A DNA stretch of 64,000 bases from an uncultured Eubacterium sp. (GTDB lineage Bacteria > Bacillota > Clostridia > Lachnospirales > Lachnospiraceae), in contig CAYLWI010000001.1 of assembly GCA_964387345.1 (NCBI GenBank), forward strand, positions 47,525-111,524, in the 5' to 3' direction. A program made the translations under genes and the position numbers. The notes beneath the pieces were generated by a model that was given only the letters and a program-made list of their open reading frames with translations, had not been told where the DNA came from and made no database searches. Below, piece after piece: positions 45,392-52,520 of the stretch. The number at the start of each line of letters is the position of its first letter. Position 1 is the stretch's first letter.

Positions 45392-45420
45392 AGTCAGACA
45401 GGAAAGGTGAACGATGGCGC

Positions 45421-47346
45421 ATGAAAGATAGAAAACGGAGACGGCTCAGACGGAAAATGTTCCAGGGAAGAACAGATCGCAGAATATATATAAGATATAT
45501 CCTGATGCTGACGGCAATCCTTTTTCTCTGTCTGGAACTGGATCGTTTTGCGCATGAGAAAGCGGTATCCACAGGGAATGAGGAGCTGGTACCTTCTGTG
45601 GAGCTGGCGGGATATCTGCAGATCATCCCGCTGACTCCGGAGGAAACCAGGACTCTGATTCTTCCGGATCTGGGCGAATACATAACAGGAGAGGATCTGT
45701 ATAACCTTCTGGAATATCTCTGCATGGACAAACTGGCAGAGACAGTCAGGGAGGAAGAAGCCTTTGGGGAAGAGGATTTTCTCACTTATGAAATATGGTG
45801 CGGGATTTATGGGAGAATGATTGAAGAACTGGGACTTTCGGAACAGGTGGAAACGGTGGAGATACAATATCTCGGGATGCTTATGTCTGAAGAAAGGCTT
45901 ATGGCGGATAATGGGAATTATGACTGTGATGCGGAGGGAATTGATTTTGTATATGGAGAGACTTATCAGGTATATATCTATGGGAATGTTCTCCTGGGAA
46001 AAGCAGTGCCTGTCACCGGACAGATTCTGTCGGAAGAAGAGGAACAGGAGGATCAGGGAGAACAGACCGGACAGATTCAGACGCCCGACACAGTCAGGGT
46101 GCTTCTGACACAGGATAATTCTGAAAAAATTTACCGGGAGGAAGTTTTTCTCACTGGAAATGCCGGGCTGCAGGCCGCGATCCCCGGGCGGGAACAGGCT
46201 GATCAGAAGCAGGCGGGGCAGGTTCTGGACTGCGGGGAATGGATGAATGAAAATTCTGTGGATGAGATGACGGTATCGTCTGTAGAAGATGGCAGGATTT
46301 ATATTACAGATGAAACAGGAGAGATTCTTTCTTCCGGATACCGGGGAAGTTTCCGATTGTGCCGGAATGAAAATGGGATATGGATTGTAAATGAAATTTC
46401 CATGGAGGAGTATCTTTACGGAGTTGTACCGGGAGAGATGCCGGAAAGCTTTGAAACGGAAGCCCTGAAGGCGCAGGCAGTCTGCGCCCGTACTTATGCG
46501 TCCCATCTTGTTTCGCAGGATAAGTATGAAGATTATGGAGCAGATCTGGACGATACTACAGATTGTCAGGTATATCTTCCTTCCGGAGAAAATGAAAAAG
46601 CTCTGGAGGCTGTAAAAGATACCGCCGGAAAGGTTCTTTCCAGCCAGGGAGCTCTGGCAGATATTTATTATTTTTCTACATCCTGCGGCTTCACCTCGGG
46701 TCTGGAAGTATGGCAGATCAGCAGTCCGGACTATCTGGGAAAGGTCAGTCTGCTGCTGACGCAGGATCTGAAGGTAGGGGAGAATATTACGGTGGATGAG
46801 TTTCTGAGAAAGACGGATGTTTCTGCTTACGACAGTGGGAGCAGATATTTCCGGTGGACTGTCCAGCTTGATTTCACAGCGGATATTGAGCAGGTTCTGG
46901 AGGCAGTCCGGCAGGAGATTGACGCCGGCGCCGGAAAGGCGGGAATCGAGGCCGCGGGAGGAAGTGATGCAGATCAGCTGGGTGATTTCCAGGGAATGGC
47001 TGTGAATGGGAGAAATGACTCCGGAACGGTAACGGATCTTGTCCTGCAGTTTGAATATGGAAAGGTACATTTATATCACGAAAACACGATACGCAATGTC
47101 CTGGGCAGGGTAATGGTATCGGTTACGGATAAAAACGGAGAAATTGTCCATACTCTTAATATGCTGCCAAGCGCCGCGTTTTCTGTAGAGGATTCCGGAG
47201 ATGGAATAATTACCCTTTATGGCGGCGGACTGGGCCATGGGATAGGTATGAGCCAGTATGGAGCCGACGGGATGGCAGAAGCGGGAAAAACTTATGATGA
47301 GATTCTGGATTTCTTTTTCCCGGGGACAGAGATTGCGGGAAATTAA
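45421..47346 (+). CDS. Membrane-anchored SpoIID/LytB-domain protein
   Basis: N-terminal TM; EEYLYGVVPGEMP, EALKAQAVCARTY, GHGIGMSQYGA. Confidence 0.88.
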   Translation: MKDRKRRRLRRKMFQGRTDRRIYIRYILMLTAILFLCLELDRFAHEKAVSTGNEELVPSVELAGYLQIIPLTPEETRTLILPDLGEYITGEDLYNLLEYLCMDKLAETVREEEAFGEEDFLTYEIWCGIYGRMIEELGLSEQVETVEIQYLGMLMSEERLMADNGNYDCDAEGIDFVYGETYQVYIYGNVLLGKAVPVTGQILSEEEEQEDQGEQTGQIQTPDTVRVLLTQDNSEKIYREEVFLTGNAGLQAAIPGREQADQKQAGQVLDCGEWMNENSVDEMTVSSVEDGRIYITDETGEILSSGYRGSFRLCRNENGIWIVNEISMEEYLYGVVPGEMPESFETEALKAQAVCARTYASHLVSQDKYEDYGADLDDTTDCQVYLPSGENEKALEAVKDTAGKVLSSQGALADIYYFSTSCGFTSGLEVWQISSPDYLGKVSLLLTQDLKVGENITVDEFLRKTDVSAYDSGSRYFRWTVQLDFTADIEQVLEAVRQEIDAGAGKAGIEAAGGSDADQLGDFQGMAVNGRNDSGTVTDLVLQFEYGKVHLYHENTIRNVLGRVMVSVTDKNGEIVHTLNMLPSAAFSVEDSGDGIITLYGGGLGHGIGMSQYGADGMAEAGKTYDEILDFFFPGTEIAGN

Positions 47347-48378: not shown

Positions 48379-48412
48379 AGAAGGGTTTCCCCGATGATGG
48401 GGAAACCCTTCT
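48379..48412. terminator. Hairpin between convergent yihY and permease genes
   Basis: AGAAGGGTTTCCCC-GATGAT-GGGGAAACCCTTCT perfect 14-bp stem. Confidence 0.7.
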
Positions 48413-48417
48413 GCGGT

Positions 48418-50415
48418 TTATCTGCTGACAATTTTGTAATAGCTTTTTGCAGTAATGGAATAAATAATAATATACAATACCGCAAATCCCGCGAAGGTTC
48501 CGACCAGACAGAAAATAAAGGATTTTACATCTCCCATGGCCAGCACCGACAGAAGTCTGGAAACAATAGGGAAGGCAAAAGCGGAATGGACACCCGCAAT
48601 CACCAGGGGCAGGAAAAATACCATTAATACCTGGGAACGGATAAATTTCCGGATATTGTCTCTGGACAGTCCCACATTCTGCATGATCTCATATCTTCTG
48701 GCGTCCTGCAGTCCCTCTGAAATCTGCTTATAGTAGATGATCAGGACTGTAGCGATCAGAAAGATGATACTTAAGAAGATGCCGACGAAAAACATACTTC
48801 CATACAGGGGCAGATAGCGGTCGTAGCTGGATGATCTGGATTTTGCGCTGGCATAGAAGCTGATACCCTCTGTCTCTGCTGTGGATGGATTGTTCTGAGC
48901 GAATAATTCCTGTTCTCCCTGGAAAGCGTTGTTGAATCTCTGAAGGACGGCCTCTGAACGGGCAGAATCGGGAATATTATAACCACAGTAAAAATTCATG
49001 GGAGAGGCGTTGCTGCCGTAAATTTCTCTTTGCCGGTAATATAGTTCCGTCAGGGTATCCATGCTGTCTGTTACGATATAATAGACCGATATGCCGGTAT
49101 TGGCAGAGAAAACTATTGCTTCGGGAAGTTCATCCAGAACTTCTCTCACGGTAAACGTCCGGTTCATGACAGACAGAGTATCATAGGAATAAGAAGTGTC
49201 TGTGTTGGAATAGACCAGAACTTCGTCCGGGCTGAGATCTGTCTCCTGGCCGGTAACGCGGCTGTAATCTTCCGCTGTGGTAAAGACCAGGGTACAGAAG
49301 GCGTTGATGTTGATGGATGTTGCAGCGTCCATATCCACCAGGAAGGTATCTTCCTTCTGCTGGGCGCCGATTCCGAAGGCAATGGCATAGATTTCATCAG
49401 AGATTTCCACGCCTTCGTCCTCCGCGGCCTGTTTCAGCAGTTCCCGGGTGTCTGAGAAATACTGCTCAGAGAAGTTATCTGTATTCATATATACGCTGGC
49501 ATTTATTTCCCGTGGGTAGCGCTGCTGCACCATATTGTCAATTCCCGAATACAGGGAGAGGGTAGTGGATACGGCAATAATGACCATGGTGGACAGAATA
49601 CAAATGCTGGAAAGGCTGGCGGCATTTTGTTTCATCCGGTAAAGCATGTTGGATATATTGATAAAGTGGTTAGCCTTATAATAATATTTCTTATTTCTCC
49701 TGAGGCTTTTCAGCCAGATGATGCTGCCTGCGGTGAACAGACAATAGGTGCCGGTGACCACAAAGATCACAGCCAGAAAGAACAGGCCGAAGGCTGCCAG
49801 GGGATTGGTGATGCTGACGGAAATGCCGTAGCCGGTGACAATGGCTGCCACGCCGATAACGGCCAGTATCCATTTGCTCCGGGGTTCTTTTTCTCCCACA
49901 TCGCTTCCATGCAGAAGAGCAATGGTGTTGGAAAACTGGATCTGGCGGAAGGCATTCAGAAACAGAATCAGGTGGATGACTGCAAACAGGATCACAGTCC
50001 GGATAATTGCGTCCCCGGAGATCTCAAAACCCAGAGGAATTTCAGCCCCCATCAGCCGCATCAGTCCGGCAAAAGCCAGCTTATACAGAAGAAGACCGAT
50101 GAGGATTCCGCTGATGATGCTGCCGCCCGCGATAATAACTGTTTCATTGAATATAATTCTGGCAATATGGCGTTTTTCCAGTCCGAGAACATTATATATT
50201 CCGAATTCCCTTTTCCGTTGTTTCATTAGAAAACTGTTGGTATAGAACAGGAAGATGGCAGAAAAGATAATCATCAGCCCTGTTCCAAGCTTCAGCATAT
50301 ACCGGATGGCTCCTGAACCGTAGACCGCATCCATATTGGAGTTGGTTGTCAGCGCCTGGATAATGTAGAACAGGGTCGCCATCAGAATACAGGTCAGCAG
50401 ATAGGGAATATACAT
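48418..50415 (-). CDS. BceB-like FtsX-family ABC permease, apparently missing its first residues
   Basis: 665 aa; YTNSFLMKQRKREFGIYNVLGL, large extracellular loop, YYKQISEG..D..RY; ORF starts at MYIPY directly after a deletion junction. Confidence 0.85.
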   Translation of the reverse strand: MYIPYLLTCILMATLFYIIQALTTNSNMDAVYGSGAIRYMLKLGTGLMIIFSAIFLFYTNSFLMKQRKREFGIYNVLGLEKRHIARIIFNETVIIAGGSIISGILIGLLLYKLAFAGLMRLMGAEIPLGFEISGDAIIRTVILFAVIHLILFLNAFRQIQFSNTIALLHGSDVGEKEPRSKWILAVIGVAAIVTGYGISVSITNPLAAFGLFFLAVIFVVTGTYCLFTAGSIIWLKSLRRNKKYYYKANHFINISNMLYRMKQNAASLSSICILSTMVIIAVSTTLSLYSGIDNMVQQRYPREINASVYMNTDNFSEQYFSDTRELLKQAAEDEGVEISDEIYAIAFGIGAQQKEDTFLVDMDAATSININAFCTLVFTTAEDYSRVTGQETDLSPDEVLVYSNTDTSYSYDTLSVMNRTFTVREVLDELPEAIVFSANTGISVYYIVTDSMDTLTELYYRQREIYGSNASPMNFYCGYNIPDSARSEAVLQRFNNAFQGEQELFAQNNPSTAETEGISFYASAKSRSSSYDRYLPLYGSMFFVGIFLSIIFLIATVLIIYYKQISEGLQDARRYEIMQNVGLSRDNIRKFIRSQVLMVFFLPLVIAGVHSAFAFPIVSRLLSVLAMGDVKSFIFCLVGTFAGFAVLYIIIYSITAKSYYKIVSR

Positions 50416-50567
50416 ACGGTAGTTTTTCCGGAACCGGACTCGCCCATGATCGCGATGTATTCTCCCCGGTTGACGGAGAAGGAAACATCGGAAAGGGCCT
50501 GGACCTGGTTGCCGGACAACCGGGTGGTATATATTTTTTGCAGATTATGAACTTCTAAGATTGCCAT
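50394..50567 (-). pseudogene. BceA-like ABC ATPase N-terminal fragment
   Basis: MAILEVHNLQKIY...IAIMGESGSGKTT then an out-of-family tail and stop; signature, Walker B and H-loop absent. Confidence 0.88.
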
Positions 50568-50669
50568 TTCAATCATACCTCCTGTTGCTGTGTTTTATTT
50601 TTTCTGGATTCAGTATAACAAAAGCCCTGGTGAGGATGCCATTTCTTTATCTGACAATATGGAGCCAGA

Positions 50670-50687
50670 CCTTTCAAAAATGAAAGG
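50670..50687. promoter_or_regulatory. Candidate BceR-type operator upstream of the transporter genes
   Basis: CCTTTCA-AAAA-TGAAAGG palindrome, same geometry as ACA-N4-TGT Bce-type sites; extended -10 TGTTATACT near 50612-50620 on the minus strand. Confidence 0.5.
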
Positions 50688-50720
50688 CTGGCTGAAATTT
50701 CTGTGTTTTCCGGGAAAATA

Positions 50721-51443
50721 TCATTCCACGTCAGAAAACTGGCGGGAGAGATTAATATAGAAAGTAGTTCCTTCCCCCAGGGTGGAGGTGACAGAGATGG
50801 GATGGGACAGACGTCCCAGTATTTTTTTACAGAGATATAGTCCGAGACCGGTAGATCTTTTTTCCACACGACCGTTATAACCAGTATAGCTTTTCTCGAA
50901 AATCCGGGGCAGATCCTCCGGGGAGATGCCGATTCCGGTATCTGCTATGGAAAGGACCAGATGGCTGTCCACGGAAATAGTGATACTTCCCTCATTTGTA
51001 TATTTCACGGCATTTGACAGGATCTGGTCAATCACGAAGGAAAGCCATTTTTCGTCGGTCAGCACTTTCTGACCGGATGGCTCATAGATGAGACGCAGCT
51101 TTTTCTGGATAAACTGACCGGCGTATTTGCGGACAGACTGGCGTATGATGTCATCCAGATCATAATATTTAATTACAAAATCAGAGGAAGGGCTGTCCAG
51201 ACGGAAGTAGCAGAGAACCATCTCCACATACTGCTCAATCCGGAAAAGCTCTGTCTTCAACTGCCTCCCCAGGAGAGTATCTTCCTTCTGAAGCAGCAGC
51301 CGCATGGCGGCGATGGGAGTTTTGATCTGGTGTACCCATGTGGTGTAGTAATCTGTCAGATCTGTCTTTTCCATGTTTTCCGCAGTGATTTTCCGGGAGT
51401 AGAGATTATTCAGGGAGAGAACCAGCTCCTGGTAGTCCTTTTC
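50721..51443 (-). pseudogene. BceS-like histidine kinase lacking its N-terminal membrane region
   Basis: Frame open from KDYQELV through WVHQIKTPI, QILSNAVKY, DTGIGI, STGLGLYL; no TM segments upstream because the frame is joined to the response regulator gene. Confidence 0.82.
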
Positions 51444-52086
51444 TGGTTGTGATAAAACCGGTAAGGCCGGCCTGATCCAGCTTGCGGCGCAGCCGGGAGA
51501 CGTTGATGGTCAGTGTGTTTTCATCCACATAGCAGTCCGTTTCCCAGAGCTTTGTCATAAGGGTATCGCGGCTGACAATTTCCCCTTTATTCTCCATCAG
51601 TGTCTGGAGAATCCGGTAGTCATTTTTAGTCAGGGAGATCTTCTGATCCTGGTAAGAGAGAGTGGTGTCGCTCATATTCAGAATGGCTCCTCTGTGTTCC
51701 AGAAATGACGTTTTCTGCCCGAAATCATAAGTCCTGCGCAGAAGCGCCTGGATCTTGGCAGTCAGGACATCCAGATCAAAAGGTTTTGCAATGAAATCGT
51801 CGCCGCCCATATTCATGGCCATTACGATATTCATGTTGTCGGAAGCGGAGGAAATAAAAATCACCGGAACTCTGGAAATCTTACGGATTTCCGAGCACCA
51901 GTAATAGCCGTTAAAAAAGGGCAGCGAGATATCCAGGAGTACCAGGTGGGGATCAGAGGAAATGAAATCCTTCAGAACATTTCTGAAATCCTCCGCTGTA
52001 TTTACTTCCAGGTTCCAGACTTCAAGATGCTCTTTTATTTTCCGGGCAATCACCAGGTCATCTTCTACTAAAAAAATCTTATGCAT
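51406..52086 (-). CDS. BceR-like OmpR-family response regulator with altered C-terminus
   Basis: FLVEDD, LLDISLP, GGDDFIAKPF, NTLTINVSRLRRKL; ends RKGLPGAGSLPE instead of the usual KGxGY wing. Confidence 0.88.
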   Translation of the reverse strand: MHKIFLVEDDLVIARKIKEHLEVWNLEVNTAEDFRNVLKDFISSDPHLVLLDISLPFFNGYYWCSEIRKISRVPVIFISSASDNMNIVMAMNMGGDDFIAKPFDLDVLTAKIQALLRRTYDFGQKTSFLEHRGAILNMSDTTLSYQDQKISLTKNDYRILQTLMENKGEIVSRDTLMTKLWETDCYVDENTLTINVSRLRRKLDQAGLTGFITTRKGLPGAGSLPE

Positions 52087-52164
52087 AGTTACCATACCTC
52101 TTTTCAGTGTTTTATTATACTATTTCCTTGTAAAAATAGAAAGTGTCTTATGGCGAAAATGTGC

Positions 52165-52193
52165 TTGATGTTTCCGCACGGCTATGATAGAAT
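52165..52193 (+). promoter_or_regulatory. Sigma-A promoter of the pheST leader
   Basis: TTGATG-17-TAGAAT with TG extension. Confidence 0.65.
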
Positions 52194-52211
52194 AAATTCC
52201 GGTTTATAATG

Positions 52212-52520
52212 AAAAAGGCTGTGAAGATGTCAGTAGGCAGTCCTTCGGATTACAGAGAGGATATGTGAGGCGCTGAGAGCATATCTAAGGAAAGAGAACT
52301 GCTGAATTTCCCATCGGAGCTTCTGATCTGAACATATGGATGCCGTCTGTACCAGAAAGGGTTATTTTTATCCGGATATGGGGAGATGGAAATCAGAAGA
52401 GATAGTAGGATCAGACGTTGCCATGCACGTTACGCGTAAAAGAGCCCGGCTTCTGCCGGGAAAATGGGTGGTACCGCGGATATCAGACTTCGTCCCTTTG
52501 TGGATGAGGTTTTTTTGTTT
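52212..52520 (+). promoter_or_regulatory. Phe T-box riboswitch
   Basis: Stem I with AGTA, AGAGAG, GCTGAGA motifs; specifier GAA-T-TTC (52308-52310); T-box AAAATGGGTGGTACCGCG (52461-52478); terminator with T tract. Confidence 0.92.

Follow-up and report, generated by a model that had tools for sequence, protein, structure and literature searches.

Two deletions at short direct repeats have in all likelihood reduced a Bce-type resistance module to a pseudo-operon in an uncultured gut Eubacterium sp.

We analysed a 64,000-nt stretch of DNA from an uncultured Eubacterium sp. (Lachnospiraceae; GCA_964387345.1, contig CAYLWI010000001.1, positions 47,525-111,524), hereafter the window, in which coordinates are counted from the first base of the stretch. 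On its minus strand, between positions 48418 and 52095, four consecutive open reading frames (ORFs) are the remnants of a Bce-type module for the sensing of, and resistance to, antimicrobial peptides, in the order regulator, kinase, ATPase and permease. We are highly confident that two genuine direct-repeat deletions, at sites designated junction A and junction B, turned this module into a pseudo-operon, and we infer that they arose by slippage, that B preceded A, and that the function of the module was lost. An earlier note on this DNA had proposed two separate deletions hitting all four genes of a Bce-like module, and intact relatives (genomes G005 and G013, contig L109) together with a conspecific contig in which A is intact (L116) support this proposal. 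The parts of the locus are the following.

51406-52095, minus strand: OmpR-type response regulator remnant, 229-amino-acid (aa) ORF (Pfam Response_reg and Trans_reg_C)
51434-51443, minus strand: junction A, the one kept copy of the 10-bp direct repeat GAAAAGGACT; 335 bp gone
50721-51443, minus strand: BceS-like histidine kinase remnant, native residues 96-335 (ORF; Pfam HATPase_c)
50577-50720, minus strand: kinase-ATPase intergenic region, kept; from position alone, a regulator-controlled transporter promoter would be expected to lie here
50394-50576, minus strand: BceA-like ATPase stub, 60 aa (Pfam ABC_tran, positions 1-28 of 137)
50418-50432, minus strand: junction B, TCCGGAAAAACTACC; 666 bp gone (overlap of BLAST high-scoring segment pairs, HSPs)
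48418-50415, minus strand: BceB-like permease remnant, 665-aa ORF from the internal Met20 (Pfam FtsX twice, structure-chain matches)
48379-48412, minus strand: terminator-like hairpin, 14 pairs followed by a T-run, directly 3' of the permease stop, marking the end of the operon

At junction A, the minus strand from 51443 to 51434 reads AGA AAA GGA CTA (RKGL) in the regulator frame, and the kinase frame reads GAA AAG GAC TAC CAG (EKDYQ) across the same site; the earlier note had given this double reading as RKGL and KDYQ, and was exact down to the coordinates. The regulator starts with an ATG at 52086 that corresponds to the homologous start, and its residues 1-218 are native, after which the native tail GYIIENQ is swapped for PGAGSLPE, which is kinase sequence read out of frame. 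Using the kinase N-terminal fragment, we retrieved a contig that keeps the segment missing at A (L116; ERZ25039391, k87_1172487) and that shares 99.71% identity with the window across 7960 bp, and therefore comes from the same species. The intact regulator on L116 is 225 aa long and has the C-terminus TTRKGLGYIIENQ, so that the Arg of the window's RKGL is native. Compared with L116, deletion A removed 335 bp, comprising regulator codons 219-225, the stop codon, a 15-nt spacer and kinase codons 1-95, which puts figures of 7 and 95 codons on the earlier claim that A takes the last codons of the regulator and the membrane-spanning N-terminus of the kinase. The extra 335 bp of L116 consist of 325 bp plus one repeat copy, with perfect copies of GAAAAGGACT at L116 positions 7951 and 8286; the missing segment is thus flanked at the orthologous locus by the same repeat, as the earlier note had anticipated. 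Pairwise alignment of the window with L116 gave a single clean 335-bp gap, which the aligner put 2 nt inside the repeat, with 121 of 121 aligned window bases identical around junction A. The window sequence equals L116 minus the interval and one repeat unit: a repeat-bounded segment was lost, exactly one copy was kept and no filler was added, as in a slippage-type deletion.

The damage at A falls on both genes of the regulator-kinase pair. The window regulator has the domains of an OmpR-family regulator and lies next to a kinase, but its last 7 native residues are gone, its Trans_reg_C match spans positions 2-72 of 77, and it lacks the last strand of the winged-helix DNA-binding wing. The frame of the kinase remnant is open back to 51443, and its first ATG, at 51374, gives a 217-aa ORF with no obvious Shine-Dalgarno sequence; the His-box HQIKTP and the HATPase_c domain are retained, the latter being the only domain found by Pfam. 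Both hydrophobic segments of the conspecific kinase N-terminus (residues 7-42 and 42-68) are deleted, together with residues 69-95, which judging by the structure of BceS are probably much of the HAMP linker. Whereas the intact orthologues, of about 335 aa, and the conspecific L116 allele have the two N-terminal helices of an intramembrane-sensing kinase, the window retains a fragment without membrane anchor and native start.

In the ATPase frame, junction B (TCCGGAAAAACTACC, minus strand 50432-50418) gives SGKTT, and the permease frame gives RKNYR-MYIPY, letter for letter as first described. The ATPase stub starts with an ATG at 50567, again the homologous start, retains native residues 1-50 up to and including the Walker A motif GESGSGKTT, and ends in a tail, VCIFPIC and a stop, that is permease sequence read out of frame. 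As measured on L109, the nearest intact relative (92-94% identical), deletion B removed 666 bp, starting just after Walker A and comprising ATPase codons 51-254, or 80% of that gene, together with about the first 14 permease codons, in agreement with the proposed loss of most of the ATPase and of the first permease codons. Of a complete ABC ATPase, with its Walker A, Q-loop, signature, Walker B and H-loop, the window therefore has residues 1-50 only, and the permease remnant is left without its basic N-terminal 19 residues, its own start, its ribosome-binding site and its ATPase partner. L109 carries perfect 11-bp copies of TCCGGAAAAAC at positions 371 and 1037, 666 bp apart, and the same 11-mer pair in the intact operon of contig L023 is one of four perfect 11-bp direct repeats, the longest class found (within 1.5 kb). 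The two L109 copies match in register at 13 of 15 positions; the microhomology first described at B thus stands as an 11-bp perfect repeat, while its full 15 nt is probably overstated. Junction B in the window has the ATPase-type CC at positions 14-15, and relatives carry Lys or Arg at the position of the Tyr in RKNYR, which is therefore read most simply as a product of the junction and not as an ancestral residue. The anatomy of a slippage-type deletion is seen at B only through the congeners L109, which is 6-8% diverged, and L023, and differs from that at A in that the retained copy extends past the perfect 11-mer (13 of 15), so that the crossover point is only approximate. No conspecific full-length ATPase was found among the best hits of a search of 5.8 billion proteins with the L023 ATPase as a query; the best candidate, P0141, was rejected because it sits on L109, the contig of the 92-94% relative.

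We searched 40 related genomes in six frames for orthologues of the permease and found close copies in 2 of 24 same-genus genomes, G005 (82% amino acid identity) and G013 (78%). Both loci are intact, with a regulator of 224 aa, a kinase of 335 aa, an ATPase of 254 aa covering the whole ABC domain and a permease of 684 or 680 aa on one strand, and both are flanked as in the window by BrkB-like/SpoIID genes on one side and pheST on the other. When compared by BLAST to these intact relatives, the window operon gave two HSPs at each junction, overlapping in the window at 51434-51443 (10 bp) and at 50418-50432 (14-15 bp). A search of the same 5.8 billion proteins with the kinase remnant returned 7988 homologues; among the 120 listed, the near-identical ones were three 217-aa forms of this lineage, the next match (93% identity) was 335 aa long, and nearly all others were of about 325-345 aa, so that the short kinase is not the norm of the family. 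The kinase and the ATPase of relatives are not natively short, and the reading of the short ORFs as products of deletion holds.

The identity of the ancestral module follows from several comparisons. The permease remnant matched PsdB (9ugg_E, E-value 2e-42) and BceB (7tcg_A, E-value 3e-30) with phmmer, the matches beginning at their residues 18-19, and its hydropathy profile shows 7 hydrophobic segments, a hydrophilic gap of about 240 aa (residues 293-533) and 3 further segments, as in a BceB-type permease shortened by its first 19 residues. Permeases of this type have about 650 aa and ten transmembrane helices, with a large extracellular domain between TM7 and TM8. The intact orthologous kinase matched the BceS chain 8g3a_D over residues 34-326 (E-value 7e-36). 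Judged by sequence, "Bce-like" is the correct label for the ancestral module: the BceRS-BceAB and PsdRS-PsdAB systems of Bacillus subtilis (7TCG, 8G3A, 9UGG) consist of the same four gene types, with a regulator of the OmpR type, a kinase that like the 335-aa orthologue here has two N-terminal helices and no sensor domain, a MacB/LolD-like ATPase, and a permease with seven transmembrane segments, a large loop and three more segments. In contrast to the B. subtilis systems, the order here is regulator-kinase-ATPase-permease, identity is low with permease matches only over the N-terminal half, and all four genes are broken in the window. In B. subtilis, Bce modules confer resistance to peptides that bind lipid II cycle intermediates and sense them by transporter-dependent flux signalling, and activation of BceS needs a functional transporter, its transmembrane helices contacting transmembrane segments 1-4 of BceB (PMC10314905). 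The genome that contains the window has a second four-gene Bce-like module with the same gene order on another contig (C99, L117:1509-6503), with a regulator of 257 aa, a kinase of 339 aa, an ATPase of 255 aa and an FtsX permease of at least 697 aa that runs to the contig end; this module shares only about 20% identity with the broken module and is complete as far as the contig extends.

Some further observations concern the surroundings of the locus and one of its relatives. Upstream of the regulator, G013 (L015:8691-12001; compare window 52096-52463) has acetyltransferase, Fic-like/DUF4143-type and AAA ATPase genes between the regulator and pheS, while the upstream neighbours of the L023 operon are instead MBOAT, GDSL lipase and sigma factor genes, so that the surroundings of the module differ between species. 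On its other side, the SpoIID-like gene of the window (45421-47346, plus strand) is overlapped over nearly all its length by a 558-aa antisense ORF of low-complexity composition (45394-47070, minus strand), which is probably a shadow ORF. A G013-like relative (L022:4772-6766; ERZ21563605, contig_25170) has its kinase in two pieces of 225 and 114 aa and its ATPase in two of 59 and 197 aa, the latter by a frameshift from A5 to A6 in the lysine run of Walker A next to which deletion B lies. We did not retain L022 as a second natural inactivation of the ATPase, a homopolymer error being at least as likely given the split kinase and the long-read-style contig name.

Identical copies of the regulator fusion protein and of the ATPase stub were also found in other metagenome assemblies from ENA (ERZ25039383, -385, -386, -390 and -391), on the following contigs.

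L016, 25.8 kb: both junctions
L019 and L115: junction A
L017, L018 and L114: junction B

These contigs align to the window without gaps at 99.4-99.9% identity and differ in their sets of single-nucleotide polymorphisms (SNPs). This species appears to be confined to the ENA series ERZ25039383-391, which is probably one study; a 29-mer located just left of junction A had no exact match in genome contigs or JGI metagenome contigs. Deletion B was present in 5 of 5 conspecific assemblies spanning it. Deletion A is polymorphic, being absent from L116 and found on at least four SNP-distinct consensus haplotypes. The sample of L116 also yielded a 48-kb contig, L114 (ERZ25039391, k87_483248), whose end falls precisely on 51443, the base with which the junction-A repeat begins. 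The sequence common to the deleted and the intact alleles starts with this base, and a fork of the de Bruijn assembly graph would be expected here, which suggests that both alleles coexist in that sample. In L116 the kinase is broken as well: homology to the window ends 86 bp past the right repeat (window equivalent 51358), and the remaining 85 bp (L116:8372-8456) are the 3' end of a group II intron on the strand opposite to the kinase. Rfam RF00029 (domain V-VI) matched L116 8446-8372 (minus strand) over model positions 1-77 of 77 with 41.4 bits (gathering threshold 40, E-value 4e-07), a match that ends exactly at the breakpoint of kinase homology and identifies domain V-VI on the 85 bp of the element at hand. 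This element was not found in the genome of the window. Conspecifics also carry nonsynonymous variants at residues that are invariant in the compared congeners (L11P in the regulator, L to R in the kinase N-box, and K to N in the kinase). One haplotype, seen in L016 and L116 (window positions 52055 and 51710), combines L11P, just after the DD pair of the receiver domain, with a T to M change at a residue conserved in 4 of 5 compared congeners, and includes the A-intact allele with a full-length regulator. As B is in every sampled contig while A is polymorphic, and as a Bce kinase needs its transporter, we infer that the most economical history is B first, then A.

The distribution of A over several haplotypes also leaves room for a minor possibility, namely that deletion A arose recurrently at a hotspot formed by the perfect 10-bp repeat, or was actively selected, rather than inherited from one event: L116, which is undeleted, is 100% identical to L016 over the 760 bp before the junction and shows 3 differences in about 5 kb. 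If so, selection may silence the orphaned kinase-regulator pair after the death of the transporter. The same pattern may instead come from one old deletion shuffled by recombination, or from mosaic metagenome consensus sequences.

The anatomy of the junctions (repeats of 10-11 bp with one copy kept, 335-bp and 666-bp intervals, and no filler in the case of A) is what leads us to propose replication slippage or template switching between the 10-11-bp direct repeats, likely by a RecA-independent route. In model bacteria, slipped misalignment deletions between short direct repeats are RecA-independent, the classical case being E. coli lacI. Later work has dealt with deletions between short direct repeats and with RecA-independent template switching (PMC7145654). 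As in the classical deletions, one copy is retained while the interval, of a few hundred bp, and the other copy are lost, and the repeat at B is among the longest of the operon. All four parental repeat sites hold A4-A5 runs from Lys codons, which may favour fraying and realignment. In the proposed history, deletion B would have killed the transporter, after which the regulator-kinase pair would have been useless and would have drifted; most sampled strains would then have lost the 335 bp at A, and with them the wing strand of the regulator and the membrane anchor of the kinase, while in another conspecific strain the kinase would have been hit instead by the end of an opposite-strand group II intron. 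Deletional bias drives the decay of pseudogenes in bacterial genomes, and the removal here of a patchily distributed accessory module by deletions rather than point mutations resembles this process; unlike in the usual case, intermediate stages are visible within one species.

That the junctions might be assembly, binning or amplification chimeras in an organism with an intact operon deserves consideration, the genome being a 186-contig draft among metagenome-assembled relatives, but we regard this as very improbable. The same gapless junctions recur in six other metagenome assemblies with different SNPs, which on this point of the earlier note speaks for real junctions. Moreover, k-mer assemblers (MEGAHIT, k87) cannot join contigs through an overlap of 10-15 bp, which is far below any assembler k-mer; each sample must therefore contain reads that cross the junctions. 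Neither the A nor the B segment occurs anywhere else in the window's genome. In one sample the intact A allele has a contig of its own, and another contig breaks off right at the junction, which shows that the assembler resolves both forms. Granting that the junctions are real, both could still stem from one complex replication event, such as serial template switching, since they lie about 1 kb apart, each at a short repeat, no B-intact conspecific allele was found, and both share GAAAA(N0-2)ACTACC, which is absent elsewhere from the window. We consider such a single event unlikely: a conspecific allele has A intact, and in that sample deletion B is carried without a break by the one contig that crosses its site, indicating B without A. 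The resemblance between junctions proved weak once tested, since 1-2% of random pairs equal the alignment score of the 25-mer junction pair, or 6.7% when an A-run is present in both. Each shared piece spells a conserved motif (KDY, GKTT) in synonymous codons, and as the motif had been derived from the junctions themselves we treated it as a coincidence between Lys-rich motifs.

The truncated genes could alternatively form a functional, rewired system, with a soluble kinase core (DHp + CA) and a permease borrowing another ATPase. The remnant frames run for 3531 nt without a stop, the kinase remnant keeps its His-box and ATP-binding domain, the second module on contig C99 offers an ATPase of the same type, and there is no significant nonsynonymous excess on the window branch. 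We nevertheless find a rewired system very unlikely. At this age, chance can be expected to leave the frames open: a stop would result from 3.6% of random substitutions, and the probability of having none is 50% at 0.54% neutral divergence and 5% at 2.35%, so that the open frames say no more than that less than about 2.4% of neutral divergence has accumulated since inactivation. Native starts and ribosome-binding sites are missing from the remnants of the kinase and the permease, the regulator lost its last DNA-binding wing strand, conspecific strains show radical changes at invariant residues as well as the intron end in the kinase, and a Bce kinase cannot couple to the permease unless it has its membrane helices (PMC10314905). 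Haplotypes sharing the deletions differ by 0.1-0.6%, which sets a lower bound on the age of the deletions. The description of the events as "recent" in the earlier note is thus fair on an evolutionary scale, with the correction that B is in every sampled conspecific haplotype and A on at least four, which makes both deletions inherited population-level alleles rather than a culture or assembly event.

Several points weigh against reading the locus as a decaying module shaped by two successive slippage deletions. All deletion-bearing contigs come from the consecutive accessions ERZ25039383-391, so that the confirmation extends across samples and not demonstrably across studies, and that the strain with A intact also carries B is taken from the unbroken contig L114 of the same sample. 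At junction B, no relative has a parental copy that matches the T at position 12, and, with no conspecific B-intact allele, the ancestral repeat has to be taken from a relative that is 6-8% diverged. The operon SNPs among conspecifics (7 nonsynonymous, 5 synonymous) are too few for a test, and pheST, with 4 of each, makes the SNP evidence for drift weak. Polarised nonsynonymous and synonymous counts on the window branch showed no significant relaxation for the permease (56/50 versus 33/41, p = 0.29) or the kinase (p = 1); the regulator gave p = 0.055, with 4 of its 9 nonsynonymous counts being artefacts of the junction.

Successive deletions in a module that has probably lost its function would amount to ordinary stepwise gene decay, here well documented but without new biology. 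For annotation, all four ORFs are best labelled as pseudogene fragments instead of a regulator, "soluble kinase", 60-aa ATPase and permease. On contig C99 the genome still holds another module of this type that looks complete. What the locus offers is a view, within one uncultured gut species, of the successive steps by which a sensor and a transporter that depend on each other are lost; a transporter lesion in every sampled contig and alternative lesions of the sensor pair in different strains fit the flux-sensing model, where a Bce kinase has no role without its transporter.

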